Virus record (IMG/VR): IMGVR_UViG_3300000293_000037 | Direction: 5' to 3' (one strand) | Length of the DNA: 8,868 bases | Origin: a virus | Lineage: Duplodnaviria > Heunggongvirae > Uroviricota > Caudoviricetes | In this document: one piece after another, positions 1 through 8,868 of the stretch | Layout: every line of letters starts with the position of its first letter | Numbering within the stretch: position 1 is the first letter of the stretch | Program-made: the position numbers and the translations under genes | The notes under the pieces: generated by a model | The model's input: the letters and a program-made list of their open reading frames with translations, nothing else | Told to the model about the DNA's origin: nothing | The model's database searches: none

Positions 1-1971
1 GGTCAGGCGAAGCAGGAAGCTCACGCCCTTCACCACCTTCGGCGTGTCCCAGCGCGCCAGCACCTGGTATTCCCCGCTGTCTGCGGTGACTTCTGCGGTC
101 AGATGCTGCACTGCTGGCGGCGTGACACCATTCACCGTGCCGCTCTGGTCGCCGTCAAAGTGCGCCCCGTTATCCACGATGGCCTCTTTTTCCGGTACAT
201 GCTGCACGGCGGTGATGGCATACGTGCCGTCATCGTTCTCACGGATACTCACGCAGCGGAACAGGCGCTGGCGCAGCGTCGGCAGCTTCAGCCCCCATAC
301 GCTGTATCCGGCAACGCCGTCAGGAACACGGCTCACTTTTACCTTCACGCCGTCGGTGACGGACTGGACCTCCACGCTGACCGGATTGCCACTTCCGTCA
401 ACCAGGCTTATCAGCGTGGTACCGGAGGATGGCAGCGTGATTTCACGGTCGAGCGTCAGCGTCCGGGTCTGGCTGTTCACCGCCAGCACGCGCCCGCCGA
501 TGCTGATACCGGCATAGTCATCATCGCAGATTTCAATGACATCGCCCGGTACATGGCGAAGCCCTTCAGCACCCACGCTGAAGTCCACGGTCTGCGTTTC
601 CAGCAGCTCCGTTTTAATCAGCCACAGCCCGGCGCGGTGTGCCTGCCCCCGGCTGGTACAGCCAAAGGCATCCATCTTCGTGACGTGACGACCGTAACGG
701 GCAATGGCCTGCGTATCCTCCACAAGCTCTGTCGCCGTCTCCCAGCCGTTGTTCGGGTCAATCCAGTTCACCTCAACGGCATTATGGCGGTCCTTCAGGG
801 CGCTGAAGCTGTAGCGGAACGGCGCGCCATCATCCGGCATCACCACATTACTGCGGTTATAGGTCCACACCTTATCTGATGGCCGGTCCTGCACGAACGT
901 CAGCGTCTGCCCGTTCCATACCGGCATACAGCGCATCGCCGAGCAGAAATCACTGAGAACATCCCACACCTTACGCTGTGTGGTCAGCCAGGCATTACAG
1001 GTGATGCGCGGCTCCGTGCCGCCAAAACCGTCCGGCACCGACTGGTCGCAACACTGGCCGATGACATACAGCGCCCATTTATCCACATCTGCCGCACCAA
1101 GACGTTTACCCATGCCGTAGCGCGGGTGGGTCAGCATATCCCACAGACACCAGGCCATGTTGTTGCTGTATGCTGGCTTAAACGTTCCGTCCCAGATACC
1201 GCTGTATTGCCGCGTCTGCGGGTTATAGTTCGACGGCACCTGCAGAATGCGTCCGCGAAGATGATAATTACGGCTCACCTGCTGGCTGCCGAACTGCTCC
1301 GAGTCCACCTGCACGCCGACCAGTGCCGTGTTCGGGTAGCACTGTTTCACATCGATGATTTCGGTGTATGACGACCAGAGCGTTTTGTTCTGCAGCTGGT
1401 CTGTGGTGCTGTCCGGCGTCATCCTGCGCATCCGGATATTAAACGGGCGCGGCGGCAGGTTATCCACCACCACCGAGGCCAGATACTGCGAGGTGGTTTT
1501 GCCCTTAATGGTGATGTCTTTTTCCGTCACCCAGCCACCATTACGCTGTATCTGAACCAGCAGGCGAACTTCCGACGGATTCCGGTCCCCCTTTGAGGTG
1601 GTTTCCACCAGTGCCTGCACACCGAAGGTAAAGCGCAGACGGTCGATGTTTGCAGACGTAATGGTGCGGGTGATCGGCGTGTCATATTTCACTTCCGTAC
1701 CCAGCACCGTCTCGGAGCCGGAGGATTCAAACCCCTCCGGCGGTGTCTGCTCCTGCTCACCGGCACGGAACACCACCGTGACACCGGAGATGTTGGTATT
1801 CCCCTCAGTGTCCAGCACCGGCGTACTGTTCAGCAGCACGCTTTTTAATCCATCCACCGGACCTTCAACCGGCCCTTCGCTGATGGCATCGATCACACTC
1901 AGCAACTGCGTGGACTTCAGGTTGTCCTTCGCTTCGCGCGGGGTATGCCCCTTACTGCTGCCTTTACCCAT
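1..1971 (-). CDS. J: Host specificity protein J (central tail fibre / tail tip), N-terminal 657 codons; 3' end lies beyond the window start
   Basis: Manual translation of the minus strand from ATG at 1971-1969 gives MGKGSSKGHTPREAKDNLKSTQLLSVIDAISEGP...GVSFLLRLT with no stop down to position 1. This matches lambda J as I recall it along the whole length. Not in the ORF track because no stop falls inside the window. Start sits 60 nt downstream of the I stop, preceded by GAGGA. Confidence 0.9.
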   Translation of the reverse strand, partial: MGKGSSKGHTPREAKDNLKSTQLLSVIDAISEGPVEGPVDGLKSVLLNSTPVLDTEGNTNISGVTVVFRAGEQEQTPPEGFESSGSETVLGTEVKYDTPITRTITSANIDRLRFTFGVQALVETTSKGDRNPSEVRLLVQIQRNGGWVTEKDITIKGKTTSQYLASVVVDNLPPRPFNIRMRRMTPDSTTDQLQNKTLWSSYTEIIDVKQCYPNTALVGVQVDSEQFGSQQVSRNYHLRGRILQVPSNYNPQTRQYSGIWDGTFKPAYSNNMAWCLWDMLTHPRYGMGKRLGAADVDKWALYVIGQCCDQSVPDGFGGTEPRITCNAWLTTQRKVWDVLSDFCSAMRCMPVWNGQTLTFVQDRPSDKVWTYNRSNVVMPDDGAPFRYSFSALKDRHNAVEVNWIDPNNGWETATELVEDTQAIARYGRHVTKMDAFGCTSRGQAHRAGLWLIKTELLETQTVDFSVGAEGLRHVPGDVIEICDDDYAGISIGGRVLAVNSQTRTLTLDREITLPSSGTTLISLVDGSGNPVSVEVQSVTDGVKVKVSRVPDGVAGYSVWGLKLPTLRQRLFRCVSIRENDDGTYAITAVQHVPEKEAIVDNGAHFDGDQSGTVNGVTPPAVQHLTAEVTADSGEYQVLARWDTPKVVKGVSFLLRLT

Positions 1972-1993
1972 TCCTCACGCTCCATAAACGACA

Positions 1994-2013
1994 AAACCGC
2001 CCGGAGGCGGTTT
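1994..2013 (-). terminator. Intergenic hairpin between I and J: 8-bp stem AAACCGCC / GGCGGTTT with 4-nt loop, followed on the minus strand by a T-rich stretch (TTTTGTCGTTTAT)
   Basis: Inverted repeat read directly from the sequence at 1994-2001 and 2006-2013. Terminator or attenuator function is inference. Confidence 0.3.
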
Positions 2014-2031
2014 CACATAAAACATTTTGCC

Positions 2032-2769
2032 TCAGCGACCAATCACCACAACCTGACCACCGTCCCCTTCGTCTGCCNNNNNNNNNNNNNNNNNNNNNNN
2101 NNNNNNNNNNNNNNNNNNNNNNNNNNNNNNNNNNNNNNNNNNNNNNNNNNNNNNNNNNNNNNNNNNNNNNNNNNNNNNNNGAGAAACCACACGTGATCCC
2201 ACGCGCATTTCACCGTACAGAACAGGCAGAACATTGCCCTGGGCAACCATGTTATCCAGTGACGAGAAATACGTGTTCTGCTTACCGTTATCCGTGCTGG
2301 TCGTTGTTGCGGTACTGGCTTTCGGTGCCAGCATCTGCGCCACACCGCCAAGGATCATACTGGCCCCCGCAGCATACATGCCCGATAAAGCCGCAGCTCC
2401 CAGCCAGCCTGCAGGGTTCCACCACGCCACTGCAATCAGCGCCGCACCCAGCACCGCCTGAAACACACCGCCACTTTTTGCTCCCGCAAGACGCGGAACG
2501 ATGTGGATCACGGCACCATTTTTCAGCGGCTCATTAAGACGGGCTGATAATTCGTTTTCGCCTGCATCACGCCCGGCAATGCGCACCTGATACCAGCCAT
2601 CGCTCAGTTTCTGACGAAACGCCGGGATCTGCATGGCCAGCGCCCGGATGGCTTCGGCCCCTGTTTTCACACGAAGGTCGATGCGGCGGCCAAATCGTTG
2701 CAAATCCCCGTAAAGGCAGATGCGTGCCATGCCCGGTGATGCCAGAGGGAGTGTGTGCGTCGCTGCCAT
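2032..2769 (-). CDS. I: Tail tip assembly protein I, interrupted by a 103-nt run of N
   Basis: ORF track 2032..2769 (-). N-terminus MAATHTLPLASPGMARICLYGDLQRFGRRIDLRV and C-terminus ADEGDGGQVVVIGR match lambda gpI as recalled. ATG at 2769-2767, stop TGA at 2034-2032. The frame is continuous across the N-run only if the gap is really 103 nt. Confidence 0.85.
   Translation of the reverse strand: MAATHTLPLASPGMARICLYGDLQRFGRRIDLRVKTGAEAIRALAMQIPAFRQKLSDGWYQVRIAGRDAGENELSARLNEPLKNGAVIHIVPRLAGAKSGGVFQAVLGAALIAVAWWNPAGWLGAAALSGMYAAGASMILGGVAQMLAPKASTATTTSTDNGKQNTYFSSLDNMVAQGNVLPVLYGEMRVGSRVVSXXXXXXXXXXXXXXXXXXXXXXXXXXXXXXXXXXXADEGDGGQVVVIGR
2078..2180. other. Run of 103 ambiguous bases (assembly gap or masked sequence) inside gene I
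   Basis: Literal n characters at 2078-2180. Confidence 0.99.
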
Positions 2770-3410
2770 TTGTCGGTATACCTCTCTCGTTTGCTCAGTT
2801 GTTCAGGAATATGGTGCAGCAGCTCGCCGTCGCCGCAGTAAATAGCGGCATGATTCGGCACCGATGAACCAAAACAGCACAGCAGCACATCGCCCGGCAG
2901 CGCCGCTGACAACGGCACCTGATACAGCCCCGTTGCCTCCATATTATCCAGATAGAGATTCTGACCGTGACGCCACCAGTCATCCTCACGATGAAAATCA
3001 GGCATCTCAATTCCCGCCAGATGGTAAGCATCCCGGAACAGCGTGTAACAGTCCGTCACCCCGTGCTCAAAGCGCCGCCCGGTAAGATGCGGCACACAGC
3101 GGAACTTGTGAATCGCCCCCCGGCAGACCAGCCACCACGGCAAATCACTCTGCACCTGCAGCCGCCGGTCAGCCTCACTCAGCCAGGGCAGAGCACCGGG
3201 GTGACTGTGGACCAGCGCCACAATCTCACCCTGCATTTCTGCCCGCAGCCAGTCCTCCGGAGCCATCCGGAAATACGCCTCCGGCTCACCGGAGATATTC
3301 ACGCAGGGAAAATATCTTTCCCCTTCCGGCGTTCTCACCACGAAGCCGCACGACTCCGCTGGCGCACATCGCCGGGCGTGCGCCAGAATCGCTGATTCGG
3401 TCTGTGTCAT
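2667..3410 (-). CDS. K: Tail tip assembly protein K, full-length 247-aa form with a JAB/MPN (JAMM) domain followed by an NlpC/P60-type cysteine peptidase domain
   Basis: ORF track 2667..3410 (-). JAMM motif HSHPGALPWLSEAD (HxH-x7-S-x2-D) at residues 69-82. Candidate NlpC/P60 residues: Cys in DCYTLF, His in NHAAIY and ELLHHIP. ATG at 3410 lies 5 nt after the L stop. The 3' end overlaps I by 103 nt. Confidence 0.9.
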   Translation of the reverse strand: MTQTESAILAHARRCAPAESCGFVVRTPEGERYFPCVNISGEPEAYFRMAPEDWLRAEMQGEIVALVHSHPGALPWLSEADRRLQVQSDLPWWLVCRGAIHKFRCVPHLTGRRFEHGVTDCYTLFRDAYHLAGIEMPDFHREDDWWRHGQNLYLDNMEATGLYQVPLSAALPGDVLLCCFGSSVPNHAAIYCGDGELLHHIPEQLSKRERYTDKWQRRTHSLWHHRAWHASAFTGICNDLAAASTFV

Positions 3411-3415
3411 GGGAT

Positions 3416-4114
3416 TTACTGCGAAAGTTTGTTAATGGAAAGGAAGCCGCCAAAGTTGCCGACGTTATTGCGAAACTTACAGCCACTCAGGCATTTGCTG
3501 CATTTATCCTTCGTGATATCGGACGTCGGCTGATCATATTCATCCGCGACCGCCGGACCGTGATAACTGCACTCATCACCGCGATAGGTCCAGGTGCAGG
3601 TATTAGCCAGCATGATGCGGCCCGGAAAAACAGCGCCGTCCGTTTCCGTCGGCGTGGACAGTACAAAGGAGGCACTGACCGCGCTCAGTTCGCTGCACTG
3701 CTCAATGCGCCAGCGGCTGATTACCTCCTGCTCCGGATCGGCGTCACTGTTTCCGTTGACGAAGTTCACCGCATCCAGAAAACGGGCGTAAACCTTACGC
3801 CTGACCACCGTTCCGCCGACCAGACTCTGCAGGTCTTCCGCCATCCCGGTGACCATGCCGTGCAGATTAGAGACTTTCAGCGTTGGCCTTGCACTGGCAC
3901 CTTTGCCGTTCATCTCAAATCCACTCCCCTGAATGGGATAGGCCTGATACTGCCGCCCCTGCCAGGTGACTGGTTCACCTTTTTCGTTCTGCTCATTACA
4001 GAAGAAATAACGATCTCCGCCGACCTCTGTCAGATCAATTTCCCAGAGCACGATCAGCGCGGATTGCTCCGTTTTAGTGCACTCATTGAGTGTTTCCTGC
4101 TGTATATCCTGCAT
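3416..4114 (-). CDS. L: Minor tail protein L (tail tip complex), 232 aa
   Basis: ORF track 3416..4114 (-). MQDIQQETLNECTKTEQSALIVLWEIDLTEVGGDRYFFCNEQNEKGEPVTWQGRQYQ... is near-identical to lambda gpL as recalled and the same length. Start ATG overlaps the M stop in an ATGA arrangement (4111-4114). Confidence 0.95.
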   Translation of the reverse strand: MQDIQQETLNECTKTEQSALIVLWEIDLTEVGGDRYFFCNEQNEKGEPVTWQGRQYQAYPIQGSGFEMNGKGASARPTLKVSNLHGMVTGMAEDLQSLVGGTVVRRKVYARFLDAVNFVNGNSDADPEQEVISRWRIEQCSELSAVSASFVLSTPTETDGAVFPGRIMLANTCTWTYRGDECSYHGPAVADEYDQPTSDITKDKCSKCLSGCKFRNNVGNFGGFLSINKLSQ

Positions 4115-4455
4115 CAGTGAGTGACCTCTTCAAAGGTACAGTTAAAATCGGTATACATGGCATTATCCGAAATGCTCCACTCCCTGCAGACAACCCGGAC
4201 AGTCCTGTTGTGTTTTGGCGGACGCCACAAAAAAGCACGAATCCCGGCATGACGGGATAAAAAACTGTCCAGCGCGGCACGGGAATATTCATCTGTGACA
4301 CGAAATACCGGTTTAAACGTTTTCAGATCCGCATTCAGACCACCAGCCCGTCGCTGTTCATATCCGTCACCAAACTTTACCGTAATAACTGATGGCTTTC
4401 GTGTCGTCTCCATCCCCTCACGGGGGATCCAGTTAAAAACTTCAGGCTCAGGCAC
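4114..4455 (-). CDS. M: Minor tail protein M; start uncertain (GTG 4455 preferred, ATG 4470 or TTG 4500 possible)
   Basis: ORF track 4114..4500 (-) begins at a TTG. The FNW...KFGDGYEQRRAGGLNADLKT core aligns with lambda gpM (FRW...RFGDGYSQ). GTG at 4455 has a GGAGGA Shine-Dalgarno 7 nt upstream and overlaps the H stop (GTGCCTGA). Lambda M is 109 aa. Confidence 0.85.
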   Translation of the reverse strand: MPEPEVFNWIPREGMETTRKPSVITVKFGDGYEQRRAGGLNADLKTFKPVFRVTDEYSRAALDSFLSRHAGIRAFLWRPPKHNRTVRVVCREWSISDNAMYTDFNCTFEEVTH

Positions 4456-7400
4456 TGTACAATCCTCCATCCCGACGCGATGACTGCATAATTGACACAA
4501 CCCTGCTGTCGATCAGATCCACCAGTCCCCTGGCTGAGCGCGCATCTATCTCGCCATTGCTCCCTTGATTCTGAATGCTGATGTGATACACGGGAGAATA
4601 AACAAACCCCCCGCCACTATTCACATTGCCAATGGCTCTGACCCCAAGAGAGCCGTCCGCTGCCCGTGTCAGTGGCATGATAGCTTCAGGCCCGGCCTCG
4701 CCCATCAGCCCGGCACCTTTCGCAAAAGCAAAATACGTCGGTGTATCCACAATAGTGTTACTGTAAGCACTCAGATTTGCCGATGTGTAAACACCACCTT
4801 TTGCGTTTGCCACCGCCCCCGAAATCCATCCGCCGACCGTACCAAGCCACCCTCCGGCACCGGAGAGTGACTTCAGTCCGTTAACAATGGCCGCATTCAT
4901 CAGAATTTTTGAAACTTCCTGGAGAATTGAACTCCCCCAGTTTCTCCAGTCCACAACATTTCCGGCCAGTGCATCGGAAATATTTGATACCAGTCCGTCC
5001 ATAGTGGAAACGACAGCATCTGCCGCCTGCGAAGCATAATCGGTGGCACTGTCTGCCCAGTTGGTCAGCCCCTCCTGGAGTCCTGCATTCCAGTTATTAC
5101 GTAAAGCATCGGCCTTTGCATAATAATTCTGCTGATCGCTGAGACGCTCTTCCAGATATTTTTTATTCAGTTCTTTCTCCTGTTTCCACAGGGCTTCTTC
5201 AATTTCTCCGGCCTGATACTGTCTCAGCAGCTCGTTATTTTTCTGCTCAAACTCATGCCGGATACTCCACATTTCCTGGAGTCGTTCACGCATCCGTGAG
5301 CCTTCACCATATCCCAGTAACTGCGCGTCGTTAGACGCCCGGGTACTGGCATTACTGTCCGCCAGGCTGCTTTCATACGCAGCAAGCTGCTCACGAATCT
5401 TTTTCTGGTCGATGAGTGCTGCATTCTGCAAAAGCGTTTTTTTCTGCGCTTCTGACAGGGTTGATAATTCGCCCTGACTGACCTGATATTTCATCTTAGC
5501 CAGTTCAGTATTCTGCCCTGCCAGTGCTATTTGTTCTTTTTGCTGTTTAATCAGCCGTTTATAAATATCTTCTGTTTTTTCCGCTTCGGTCTTTTTATGC
5601 GCTTTGGGTTTATTTGCCTGGTTATTTCGCCAGGCATCCAGTGAGTTATTGATATAATTCTGTCTGGCTGTCTGATACGCCTCTCCCACAAAGCCGAGAT
5701 CATCCGCAGCATAACCCAAGCGGGCACGCTCACGGGCTTCCCCCTTCAGGCGGGACAGAGCCAGTTCGCGCTCGCTGTTATTCAGTGCAGTCTGCTGTTT
5801 ATCATCCAGGGTTGCCTGTGGTAGCCGTAACGGTACATTCACCAGCCCCTGTCGCTGCTGAAGTAATTCATTACCGAGCCCGAGAAGGCGATTAAACTCG
5901 GTATGCTGCCCATTCATGATCAACAGGGACTGATACGCTTTGTTTTGTTCCGCGGCCTGTTGACGGATCAACGCCACCCGTCGCTCCTCCAGCCCGGCAA
6001 GTACATCCTGAATGGATTGCGCTTTGCCCTGCATTTGTGTGAGACGGGACTGTTCAACTGCCAGTTGATTTGTTGCTTCTGCAAGCCCTTCTGTGACAGT
6101 TTTTACCGACGTCATGTGGTTAATCATAAAACCGTTATCGGTTGTCCAGCCCGGGTTTGCCAGCACATACTGATAGCCAGCAATTTTTTCCTGTAAGGAT
6201 TTAATCTTACTTTTCTGCTCGTCAATTAACCTGTTTTGCTCATCAAGTGCCTGCCGCGTCTTTTCCTCATTATCTGACGCTTCAGGAAGCGACATTGCCG
6301 ACGTTTTCTGGCGAATTTCGTCGATTGTTGCGGCATACTGGCGTGCAGATTCTCTGGCCTGCTCCTGATTCTGATACATCGTGTACCAGGCCGTCGCCCC
6401 CAGCATGACGAGTCCCGGCACACCACCAACCAACCCCAGCGCACCACTTAACAGACGACTCCCCACTGACGTGACAGTATTCAGCGTTGTCTGTGCCGCT
6501 GTTCTGGCCGCAATATTACGGGTAAGTGACGCCTGAGCAGCTGTCAGCTTCGCTTCTGCTGCGGCCTGCCTTTCGGTACCGCGAGCAGCAACAACCGCCT
6601 GTTGCGCACGATAAACCGCCGCACGCGCCCTGGCGGTTGCTATCTGTGTCCCCCGAAGTTGCGCTTCAGCAAGAGCCACTTCGTTTCTGGCTGCAGTAAT
6701 TAATCCGGCAGTTGCAGATCCAGCAGAAGACGCCATATTGCCAAAATATCGGGCTACCCCGACGGCAACCAGAGCACCGGCAGCGGTTGCCACGGTGTCA
6801 ATATTGCCTGCAAGACCATTCAGCACCCCGGAGAGCGTCTTCGTCACTCCGCTTGCCTCGTTCGCACCACCAACCCAAGCCATAAAGGCGTTTTCAACTT
6901 TGGTTGCAGAGGATGAAACCGTATCAGGCATTGCTGCATATTCATCACGCAACGCCCCAAGCTGACTAATCAGTGCAGGAACAACCTTATCGGCGGTTAG
7001 TTTTCCGTTATCCGCCATGGCCTTCAGATCCTTACGGGCAACGCCCATTCCCGCAGCCAGCGCACGAATAACACGATCACCGCTCTCATTCACCGAGTTA
7101 AACTCTTCACCGCGCAGCACTCCCTGCGCCAGTGCCTGACTGAACTGCGTGATCACCGAACTGGCTTCTGCTGTACTGGCACCGGATAATTTCAGGCCCG
7201 TGGAGATCGCCTCGGTGACTTTCAGTACCTCCTCAGAACTGTAACCATACTCCCGCATGGAAGCTGCAGAACGGGCAAAAAGGCTGGCGTTATCAGAAAA
7301 CGCCGTCCCCGTTCTCTGGCTGATCGCCATTAATTCACGTTGTGATACCTGAAAATCATCACTGGACTGTGAGGCCTGCTTCAGACGGGCATTTACTGAA

Positions 7401-7681
7401 TTCCACTCATCGGCGAGAGAAATAAGATGACCGGTAGCAAAAGCCCCGGCAAATGCCCCCGCCATATTCAGTGCCGAAGATTTAGCTGTATTTATCTGAT
7501 CCGTCACTTCTGCCAGTGCACGCCGCATTTCACGGGATGCAGCAGCGGACTGCCGGCCTCCGTTCTGCATGGTACGGTAGTAATCCTGCCCCATACGCGA
7601 AGCCCGGGAGATCTCTGACTGGAATGACCGGGAATTTGCCGAGATTTTAATAATCAGTTCACGTAATGTCGCCACACTCAT
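4448..7681 (-). CDS. H: Tail tape measure protein, 1077 aa
   Basis: ORF track 4448..7681 (-). Long Ala/Gln/Glu/Lys-rich, largely coiled-coil-like protein. The C-terminal region (GGVYTSANLSAYSNTIVDTPTYFAFAKGAGLMGEAGPEAIMPLTRAADGSLGVRA) resembles the lambda gpH C-terminal domain as recalled. Sits immediately downstream of the G/G-T chaperone pair and upstream of M-L-K-I-J. Confidence 0.93.
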   Translation of the reverse strand: MSVATLRELIIKISANSRSFQSEISRASRMGQDYYRTMQNGGRQSAAASREMRRALAEVTDQINTAKSSALNMAGAFAGAFATGHLISLADEWNSVNARLKQASQSSDDFQVSQRELMAISQRTGTAFSDNASLFARSAASMREYGYSSEEVLKVTEAISTGLKLSGASTAEASSVITQFSQALAQGVLRGEEFNSVNESGDRVIRALAAGMGVARKDLKAMADNGKLTADKVVPALISQLGALRDEYAAMPDTVSSSATKVENAFMAWVGGANEASGVTKTLSGVLNGLAGNIDTVATAAGALVAVGVARYFGNMASSAGSATAGLITAARNEVALAEAQLRGTQIATARARAAVYRAQQAVVAARGTERQAAAEAKLTAAQASLTRNIAARTAAQTTLNTVTSVGSRLLSGALGLVGGVPGLVMLGATAWYTMYQNQEQARESARQYAATIDEIRQKTSAMSLPEASDNEEKTRQALDEQNRLIDEQKSKIKSLQEKIAGYQYVLANPGWTTDNGFMINHMTSVKTVTEGLAEATNQLAVEQSRLTQMQGKAQSIQDVLAGLEERRVALIRQQAAEQNKAYQSLLIMNGQHTEFNRLLGLGNELLQQRQGLVNVPLRLPQATLDDKQQTALNNSERELALSRLKGEARERARLGYAADDLGFVGEAYQTARQNYINNSLDAWRNNQANKPKAHKKTEAEKTEDIYKRLIKQQKEQIALAGQNTELAKMKYQVSQGELSTLSEAQKKTLLQNAALIDQKKIREQLAAYESSLADSNASTRASNDAQLLGYGEGSRMRERLQEMWSIRHEFEQKNNELLRQYQAGEIEEALWKQEKELNKKYLEERLSDQQNYYAKADALRNNWNAGLQEGLTNWADSATDYASQAADAVVSTMDGLVSNISDALAGNVVDWRNWGSSILQEVSKILMNAAIVNGLKSLSGAGGWLGTVGGWISGAVANAKGGVYTSANLSAYSNTIVDTPTYFAFAKGAGLMGEAGPEAIMPLTRAADGSLGVRAIGNVNSGGGFVYSPVYHISIQNQGSNGEIDARSARGLVDLIDSRVVSIMQSSRRDGGLYSA

Positions 7682-7691
7682 TCTCCGGACG

Positions 7692-7713
7692 AAAAAAAAC
7701 CGCCGAAGCGGTT
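7692..7713 (-). terminator. Intergenic hairpin plus U-tract between T and H: minus-strand AACCGC-TTCG-GCGGTT followed by T8
   Basis: Plus strand 7692-7713 is A8-CCGCCGAAGCGGTT. On the minus strand this is a 6-bp stem with a UUCG tetraloop followed by eight U. It sits in the 40-nt spacer between the T stop (7722) and the H ATG (7681). Function is inference. Confidence 0.3.
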
Positions 7714-7721
7714 ATGTTGAC

Positions 7722-8395
7722 TCACTGAGACACTATTAAAAGCGCTTTTTCCAGTCCGGCAAATGGATCTGATACGCCTTCTGTCTGCTCCTTCTCCCAC
7801 TGAAGAAGCGCATCATTCAGTGGCACTCTGACCCCCTGCGCACCGTAAACAGCCGAAACAATCTGGGCAGCCCGGATATCAGCCCGTTCGTCCCCCAGCG
7901 GGCTGAACCTGTCAAATTCTGCCCACATCATGATTTCTGATGCGGACATTTCCCGGCGTAACTCTGACAATGTGCGCCCCATCCTGAGCGCCAGCATCAT
8001 CAGAAAACGCATCCCCGGAAGCGCTACTTTTTTTTAACCTCGCCGGCATCACTGATCAGTTCCAGAGACTGCCGAAGAAGCCGCGCATGCACCGGGCCAT
8101 ACACGGCAATCACCTGTTCACGATCATCCTCTGAAAATACAGGTTGCAGTCCGGTATCACACAGAACATCAATGAACAGTTCAACATCTGCCTCCAGATT
8201 TCGGCGGGCGCGCTCCGCAACGGATAACGGTGTCTCATTATCTTTTGCTTTAACGATCTCCTGCCAGCGCAACCAGGCTTCTGCAGAAGGTTCCCGTAAT
8301 ACAACCGTTGCCCCTTCCCATTCAGGCACATCAACAGTTTTATGGCGAAACCCCGACATCGTTGCCAGTGCCAGATTGCGGATATTTTTAGTCAT
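7722..8395 (-). CDS. G-T: Tail assembly chaperone G-T fusion made by programmed -1 ribosomal frameshift (G frame 8395..8027, T frame 8033..7722)
   Basis: The G frame ends ...GAG GTT AAA AAA AAG TAG. The -1 frame is open from the A-run (AAA AAA GTA GCG CTT CCG GGG ATG CGT TTT...) and continues as the 96-aa T-like ORF 7722..8012. Position directly upstream of the tape measure gene matches the conserved G/GT arrangement of long-tailed phages. Confidence 0.75.
8024..8395 (-). CDS. G: Tail assembly chaperone G (zero-frame product); start ATG 8395 preferred over ATG 8410
   Basis: ORF track 8024..8410 (-). ATG at 8395 is preceded by GAGGA at 8-nt spacing (AGGATAGATGTGATG); the ATG at 8410 has no Shine-Dalgarno. 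Ends in the slippery A AAA AAG followed by TAG. The call rests on position and architecture, not on recognised sequence similarity to lambda G. Confidence 0.8.
   Translation of the reverse strand: MTKNIRNLALATMSGFRHKTVDVPEWEGATVVLREPSAEAWLRWQEIVKAKDNETPLSVAERARRNLEADVELFIDVLCDTGLQPVFSEDDREQVIAVYGPVHARLLRQSLELISDAGEVKKK
8027..8033 (-). promoter_or_regulatory. Slippery heptamer A AAA AAG for the -1 frameshift between G and T
   Basis: Plus-strand CTTTTTT at 8027-8033 is minus-strand A AAA AAG in the G frame, two codons before the G stop. Part of a T8 run at 8028-8035. Confidence 0.7.
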
Positions 8396-8494
8396 CACAT
8401 CTATCCTCATTAACTGACGGTAACAGTGCAGGAAGTGGAGGTCACCTTGTTAACAGGGCTTGCTGAATCAGAAATCTCGCAGGTATGGGCAGCT

Positions 8495-8868
8495 CTATCT
8501 GCACTGCTCATTAATATACTTCTGGGTTCCTTCCAGTTGTTTTTGCATAGTGATCAGCCTCTCTCTGAGGGTGAAATAATCCCGTTCAGCGGTGTCTGCC
8601 AGTCGGGGGCTGGTTGCATTATCCACGCCGGAGGCGGTGGTGGCTTCACGCACTGACTGACAGACTGCTTTGATGTGCAACCGACGACGACCAGCGGCAA
8701 CATCAGCGCGCAGAGTTTCATTTTCAGCTTTCGCATTGGCTAATTCTCTCGAGTACTTTGCATCGAGTGCAGCAACATCACGCTGATGCTGCTGCATGTC
8801 AGCGATGGTGGCGATCGCCTGCTTCAGCTCACTGACTTTTTTATCACGCTGTTCTTTGTAGGCGATGG
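8495..8868 (-). CDS. Rz: Rz i-spanin (inner-membrane spanin), C-terminal part; 5' end lies beyond the window end
   Basis: ORF track 8495..8797 (-): MQQHQRDVAALDAKYSRELANAKAENETLRADVAAGRRRLHIKAVCQSVREATTASGVDNATSPRLADTAERDYFTLRERLITMQKQLEGTQKYINEQCR matches the lambda Rz C-terminus as recalled. The frame stays open upstream of 8797 to the window edge (IAYKEQRDKKVSELKQAIATIAD-MQQ...), so the true start is outside the window. Confidence 0.9.
   Translation of the reverse strand, partial: IAYKEQRDKKVSELKQAIATIADMQQHQRDVAALDAKYSRELANAKAENETLRADVAAGRRRLHIKAVCQSVREATTASGVDNATSPRLADTAERDYFTLRERLITMQKQLEGTQKYINEQCR
8554..8736 (-). CDS. Rz1: Rz1 o-spanin (outer-membrane lipoprotein), 60 aa, nested in the +1 frame of Rz
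   Basis: ORF track 8554..8736 (-): MRKLKMKLCALMLPLVVVGCTSKQSVSQCVKPPPPPAWIMQPAPDWQTPLNGIISPSERG. Has an LVVVGC lipobox and a proline-rich segment; near-identical to lambda Rz1 as recalled and wholly contained inside Rz. Confidence 0.88.
   Translation of the reverse strand: MRKLKMKLCALMLPLVVVGCTSKQSVSQCVKPPPPPAWIMQPAPDWQTPLNGIISPSERG

Follow-up and report, generated by a model that had tools for sequence, protein, structure and literature searches.

The window is the entire 8,868-nt stretch of DNA that was analysed, and its minus strand is the coding strand of every gene that it contains. Gene assignments were based on Pfam matches, all of which lie well above the curated cut-off, and they place two spanin genes, Rz and Rz1, next to the tail genes G, G-T, H, M, L, K, I and J, arranged in the order that characterizes a lambdoid late region:

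8495–8868, minus strand: Rz (i-spanin), 3' part, 123 codons plus the stop at 8495–8497 (PF03245 Phage_lysis, E 1.4e-49)
8554–8736, minus strand: Rz1 (o-spanin lipoprotein; PF06085 Rz1, E 2.8e-20)
8024–8395, minus strand: G-type tail assembly chaperone, 123 aa (PF06222 Phage_TAC_1, E 1.6e-57)
8027–8033, minus strand: slippery heptamer A_AAA_AAG at the end of G, located in a three-frame translation of 7991–8070
7722–8000, minus strand: T segment of the G-T chaperone (PF06223 Phage_tail_T, E 8.3e-19)
4448–7675, minus strand: tape measure protein H, 1075 aa (PF06120, PF20155, PF09718)
4114–4470, minus strand: minor tail protein M (PF05939, E 1.2e-31)
3416–4114, minus strand: minor tail protein L (PF05100, E 9.7e-100)
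2667–3410, minus strand: tail protein K, with JAB and NlpC/P60 domains (PF14464, PF00877)
2032–2769, minus strand: tail assembly protein I, broken by a run of N (PF06805 on the N-terminal part)
1–1971, minus strand: tip attachment protein J, N-terminal 657 codons (PF24801, PF13550, PF24421)

The 5' end of Rz lies beyond the window edge at 8868, and J is cut off by the window start. Rz1 is nested inside Rz in another reading frame, the layout of a two-component spanin, and corresponds to rzoD in the annotation of the identical parent prophage described below. The match of G to Phage_TAC_1 begins at profile position 1, and the G start at 8395 coincides with the RefSeq start of the 'phage tail assembly chaperone' in that identical prophage; an in-frame ATG further upstream, at 8410, is a less likely start, as GAGGA is found ~8 nt before the ATG at 8395. 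The 3' end of G reads ...GTT AAA AAA AAG TAG: a −1 shift at the heptamer enters the T frame and would yield a G-T fusion. This G/G-T chaperone arrangement is conserved in long-tailed phages. The tape measure protein and the chaperone play a role in tail assembly (PMC10721106). K and I overlap by 103 nt (2667–2769) in different frames, are annotated in this way in all relatives and represent a normal configuration for the tail module. The 46-nt gap between T and H accommodates a terminator-like hairpin (AACCGCTTCGGCGGTT) with a T run behind it, at 7698–7713 on the minus, that is, the coding strand; this structure is also present in the intact parent and is thus unrelated to the rearrangement discussed here.

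The initial annotation of this DNA had assigned the same genes, which the Pfam matches confirm, and had located the Rz stop (8495) about 100 nt from the G start (8395). These coordinates are right, and the spacer between the two genes, 8396–8494, is 99 nt long. It had also pointed out that terminase, head and tail-tube genes are missing: no terminase, portal, capsid or tube gene is present in the window, and the tube gene is represented by a 24-codon 3' stub only. The evidence for this is structural rather than statistical. This stub is part of the spacer, which consists of three stretches, two of them abutting at a TAT trinucleotide. Coordinates preceded by L001 are those of the prophage region of E. 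coli DETEC-P169 (NZ_CP116166.1), in its own numbering:

8487–8494: native sequence just 3' of the Rz stop, 8 nt, equal to L001 21881–21888, where it belongs to the 3' arm of a hairpin in the parent
8484–8486: putative deletion junction TAT, a 3-bp microhomology common to both parental breakpoints
8410–8486, minus strand: 3' remnant of the major tail (tube) gene, 77 nt, identical to the 3' end of L001 12811–13515
8396–8409, minus strand: native sequence separating the tube gene from G, 14 nt, with the Shine-Dalgarno sequence GAGGA for G, identical to L001

The tube gene remnant retains the final 24 codons (TCEISDSASPVNKVTSTSCTVTVS) with their stop, plus 2 nt from a codon that was broken, and has no start codon. 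Promoter or terminator consensus sequences newly made in the spacer were sought on the coding strand between Rz and G and none was found.

The intact parent prophage and its relatives

When the segment 7600–8868 of the window was compared by megablast with 5,426 complete E. coli genomes, the query split into two: 7600–8486 aligned with tail regions and 8484–8868 with Rz regions. None of these genomes contained a record covering at least 80% of the query. In the phage collection the query split at the same point. A single genome, E. coli DETEC-P169 (NZ_CP116166.1, ~2.716–2.740 Mb), carries both halves of the window at 100% identity, in one prophage and on the same strand. The correspondence consists of three blocks:

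window 1–2077 = L001 4492–6568, 100.000% identity
window 2181–8486 = L001 6582–12887, 100.000% identity
window 8484–8868 = L001 21878–22262, 100.000% identity

There are zero substitutions between the window and DETEC-P169 over all 8,765 non-N bases. The 6.3-kb tail block is 100% identical in DETEC-P169 only, the next-best genomes reaching 99.8%, and the portion of Rz contained in the window (8495–8868) is 100% identical to L001 21889–22262. A base-by-base comparison established that the left homology ends at 8486 (L001 12887) and that the right one begins at 8484 (L001 21878). The offsets of the two blocks differ by 8,993 bp, and in DETEC-P169 both have the same orientation. As regards the Rz locus of this genome, the RefSeq annotation calls Rz1 (rzoD) alone; the full Rz frame at L001 21889–22350, 153 codons long and beginning with GTG, is open and unannotated.

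The window and the DETEC-P169 prophage, together with its relatives (Escherichia phages such as vB_EcoM-606R7, Evi and phi467), have the same order and orientation of J-I-K-L-M-H-T-G and of Rz/Rz1. Two differences set the window apart from the DETEC-P169 prophage: 103 N take the place of 13 bp inside gene I, and the 8,993 bp extending from iss/bor to the major tail gene are absent. According to the annotation of the parent, the interval absent from the window contains the following genes:

lysis side: iss/bor, HNH endonuclease, P27-family TerS, TerL and a small ORF
head genes: portal, HK97-type (S78) prohead protease and major capsid protein (HK97-fold)
connectors: head-tail connector, head closure, gp10-like protein and gp17-like tail completion protein
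tail side: 628 of the 705 nt (89%) of the major tail gene

The tube gene truncated in this way is located at L001 12811–13515 in the parent and encodes an immunoglobulin-domain protein of 234 aa.

The arrangement in which Rz lies next to G is not the normal order in the relatives of this element. Exact look-ups of the G and H proteins retrieved 20 distinct genomic contexts, and all 20 display the canonical order Rz-(bor/small genes)-HNH-TerS-TerL-portal-protease-capsid-connectors-tail completion-tube-G. The distance between Rz and G is ~9 kb in every one of these contexts and in all the phage records examined. Some short 'phage' records (11–21 kb), in which G seemingly lies near a contig end, were considered and discarded: they are partial contigs with normal gene order. 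Of the 900 complete genomes that carry the stretch from the tube gene to G, 893 have it uninterrupted, and the median is one copy per genome. The junction itself is absent from the 5,426 complete E. coli genomes, from 50,697 phage records and from 72,556 plasmids (PLSDB), and a 37-mer and a 24-mer spanning it found no match in GTDB species representatives, JGI metagenomes or IMG/VR.

A comparable loss has occurred, at L024 ~9412–9577, in a related prophage in the complete genome of E. coli AR_0119 (NZ_CP021535.1), one of the few genomes in which the tube-G region is broken. In this prophage G adjoins a truncated HNH pseudogene, and everything from TerS to the tube gene has gone, save for 27 nt of the latter. 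The AR_0119 junction is found in one of the 5,426 complete E. coli genomes. Its breakpoints differ from those of the window and the deletion is therefore an independent event; the tube-gene endpoints of the two deletions are 50 nt apart and both spare G-J. Deletions from the head genes to the tube gene recur sporadically in this common E. coli prophage family, each as a private allele. Two deletions are too few to speak of a hotspot or of selection.

The run of N, at 2078–2180 inside gene I, replaces 13 bp of the reference (GTGCTGATCTCCT, L001 6569–6581) and makes the window 90 nt longer, by chance in frame. Almost all of the 20 related contexts encode a protein I of 215 aa, which makes a true insertion of 30 codons unlikely, and no exact match to the X-containing I protein was retrieved. 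The appearance of the run, which resembles a scaffold gap or a mask, suggests that the window was scaffolded or otherwise processed.

Breakpoints and junction

One breakpoint is located 77 nt before the end of the tube gene (L001 12885–12887), where many prophages have 100% identical sequence. The other lies 8–11 nt past the Rz stop (L001 21878–21880), within a hairpin positioned between the convergent iss/bor and Rz genes. In the parent this hairpin occupies L001 21864–21889 and consists of an 11-bp stem separated by a CGAT loop, GAGTTGCCCAT-CGAT-ATGGGCAGCTC. Its DNA fold has an energy of −11.1 kcal/mol (z −3.8), and none of 200 shuffles was as good. The breakpoint falls exactly at the border between the loop and the 3' arm, and the 3' arm survives at 8485–8495 of the window. 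The hairpin lacks a T run and is thus not a classical intrinsic terminator. DNA folding disclosed no comparable hairpin structure at the left breakpoint.

The two breakpoints have TAT alone in common at the junction. In the sequence up to 300 nt from both, common direct words do not exceed 9 nt and inverted ones 13 nt, and the longest of either kind is situated away from the junction. By our own calculation, the chance of a microhomology of at least 3 bp in random joins is ~5%, and TAT alone is weak evidence on mechanism. No IS element or IS end is present at the junction: the tube gene passes seamlessly into the sequence that follows Rz, which is at variance with an IS-mediated adjacent deletion. 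The IS copies harboured by two relatives (L007 and L012) are not present in the window.

Several candidate origins were rejected. Site-specific, homologous or IS-mediated recombination finds only TAT and no IS at the junction. Homologous recombination and repeat-mediated misassembly alike lack any common sequence beyond TAT, and most genomes contain the tube-G stretch once. A join at a mosaic boundary was dismissed too, as homology between prophage types ends at L001 21890 (the Rz stop) or 21908 and not at 21878–21880. A deletion hotspot at the Rz end had been suggested by ON470600.1 (phage vB_EcoS-569R6), a record apparently 'lacking' 212 bp, which on alignment proved to be a 10-N scaffold gap only. 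In this record 10 N, at 10070–10079, replace 212 bp of Rz starting from the Rz stop, so that the annotated 'endopeptidase Rz' is 99 aa long; contigs in short-read assemblies evidently break at the 3' end of Rz.

Origin and fate of the element

The window probably represents an E. coli lambdoid prophage from whose interior one very recent event of illegitimate recombination has deleted 8,993 bp. As is expected of a defective prophage, the flanks are collinear with and 100% identical to one intact prophage, and a truncated gene remnant marks the junction. A short microhomology combined with a hairpin at one end is a classical signature of illegitimate recombination, and it is the 3-bp microhomology together with the hairpin at one breakpoint that points to this process here. 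The zero substitutions in 8,765 bases indicate that the deletion is very recent. The parent combines a lambda-type tail and lysis cassette with an HK97-type head module. Replication slippage or a break-and-join event at TAT may then have joined the ends, without the intervention of an IS element or a long repeat, and would have removed iss/bor, the HNH gene, the cos/packaging region, TerS, TerL, the head, connector and tail completion genes and 89% of the tube gene.

The initial annotation had regarded the spacer as a possible deletion scar of a cryptic prophage. A prophage deletion scar agrees well with the 100% identity of both flanks to one intact prophage, where 8,993 bp separate them, and with the tube gene remnant; the 'cryptic' part of the description does not hold, as the scar is not old and carries zero substitutions relative to the intact parent. 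The alignment of the spacer and its flanks, proposed as a means to place the breakpoints, did locate them, at 8484–8486. The claim that roughly 10 kb of lambda-type packaging, head and tail genes have been lost was correct as to the loss, yet the missing genes are not the lambda set Nu1-A-W-B-C-D-E...Z-U-V: they belong to an HK97-type module and the missing interval measures 9.0 kb. The caution that intact reading frames from G to J do not prove retention was well placed: with zero substitutions relative to the parent, intact frames are expected under neutrality and are uninformative on retention or selection.

In the lambda tail pathway a tip initiator (J, I, K, L and H, with G/G-T, and M) is formed first and the tube protein then polymerises. 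In the element described here, G-J would now lie directly behind S-R-Rz in the same orientation and would still be on the Q-antiterminated late transcript upon induction. Transcription of G-J with the lysis genes on induction is expected because the late-operon orientation is maintained and the spacer holds no terminator-like site on the coding strand. Without tube protein, tail terminator, head, terminase and cos, and provided that no head genes lie elsewhere in the genome, only tail-tip initiator complexes could be formed. The element would be lysis-competent at most, a presumption that extends to holin, endolysin and Q genes situated outside the window, and no virion or transducing particle would be made or packaged.

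The main competitor of a genuine deletion is a junction of non-biological origin, whereby a chimeric read or molecule, an error of gap closing or scaffolding, or an edited sequence joined parts of an intact prophage like that of DETEC-P169; the initial annotation had listed an assembly artefact among the findings that would refute its reading. This is a real but distinctly minor possibility. It draws strength from the exact agreement of the window with one public genome, apart from the 8,993-bp gap and the 103 N standing for 13 bp, and from the fact that the junction is found in none of the collections searched, so that no independent sequence confirms it. Moreover, the run of N suggests a processed sequence and thereby lessens the trust in the contiguity of the window, contigs of short-read phage assemblies are known to break in the Rz region (ON470600.1, 10-N gap), and a microhomology of at least 3 bp is so common among random joins that TAT proves little. 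On the other hand, a false join made by a graph or overlap assembler needs a common k-mer, whereas only 3 bp are shared here and the breakpoints contain no repeat: no repeat of at least 20 nt (k-mer length), such as a repeat-driven misjoin involves, was found at the junction. Most genomes have one copy only of the stretch that contains the left breakpoint, and this breakpoint does not coincide with a mosaic boundary. Scaffolders leave N, as at 2078–2180, whereas the junction at 8484–8486 is seamless. Finally, the comparable deletion in the finished AR_0119 genome demonstrates that prophages of this family do undergo such losses. If the junction were an artefact, the lesson would be one of assembly quality control.

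The remaining explanations accept the junction and assign it a biological meaning. The initial annotation had contemplated a non-canonical or domesticated tail-tip module, in other words a unit in which the lysis cassette and a tube-less G-J set are kept by the host, for example for the release of receptor-binding tip complexes. The intact G-J frames, their late-operon orientation behind Rz and the native ribosome-binding site of G would suit such a unit, as would the two independent deletions that end in the last 27–77 nt of the tube gene and spare G-J. It is nonetheless highly improbable: in the absence of substitutions relative to the parent the frames are expected to be intact without any selection, both deletion alleles are singletons among 5,426 genomes, and known tail-like bacteriocins keep the tube protein that is absent here. 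Loss of iss/bor, the one recognised host-beneficial gene in the interval, speaks against selection of the rearrangement by the host. The literature was checked for tail-tip modules that lack a tube, and nothing relevant was found. The more specific proposal of a selected unit that releases tip complexes as decoys, adhesins or a minimal killing device is scarcely credible; if it were true, the closeness of the tube-gene endpoints of the window and AR_0119 deletions, and the sparing of G-J in both, would reflect that selection. Equally, there is only the faintest chance that Rz followed by G is the normal order of some lambdoid lineage, perhaps arising from recombination at a mosaic boundary. 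Lambdoid phages are mosaic and a module boundary does exist at the Rz stop (L001 21890 or 21908), but the breakpoints at L001 12885–12887 and 21878–21880 are off the mosaic boundaries, the spacer holds a broken tube gene devoid of a start codon, and no phage, plasmid or E. coli genome record displays the Rz-G order. For close relatives this explanation, which the initial annotation had named as a finding that would overturn its reading, is already refuted by the canonical order of all 20 contexts and of the phage records.

The element is best regarded as a defective prophage that has only begun to decay, and not as a selected module. Inactivation of prophages by internal deletion is a well-known phenomenon, and this particular allele is unrecorded. 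In practical terms, the prophage copy is to be labelled defective and left out of counts of intact or inducible phages and of iss carriers. The deletion provides a tidy case of early prophage decay, with breakpoints defined to the base pair, a 3-bp microhomology and a hairpin at one end; beyond annotation, it matters little.

Comparison with known systems

The late region of phage lambda follows the order S-R-Rz/Rz1-bor-cos-Nu1-A...Z-U-V-G-T-H-M-L-K-I-J. Like lambda, the window contains the G/T, H, M, L, K, I and J families in the lambda order, and its Rz/Rz1 region is ~91–92% identical at the DNA level to that of lambda-group phages. Unlike lambda, the parent prophage has an HK97-like head and packaging module (HNH, P27-type TerS, S78 protease), which is absent altogether in the window.

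F-type tailocins are lambda-like, flexible particles that keep the tube protein and the tail terminator and are encoded at a conserved chromosomal locus across strains. The window resembles these systems in that lambda-type tail genes lie beside a lysis cassette without head genes. In contrast to F-type tailocins, the tube gene of the window is cut to 24 codons, the gp17-like tail completion gene has gone and the arrangement occurs once only: the conserved, fixed locus that marks tailocins and domesticated elements has no counterpart here, the junction being found in none of the 5,426 E. coli genomes.

The closest parallels are provided by defective prophages. DLP12, Rac and Qin of E. coli K-12 are defective lambdoid prophages that arose from internal deletion and are old, heavily decayed and fixed in their lineage. 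As in these elements and in the AR_0119 prophage, morphogenetic genes have been lost from the window by deletion, and lysis genes and some tail genes are left. Unlike the K-12 elements, the deletion in the window is accompanied by no substitutions and is private to this one sequence, being present in no other genome.
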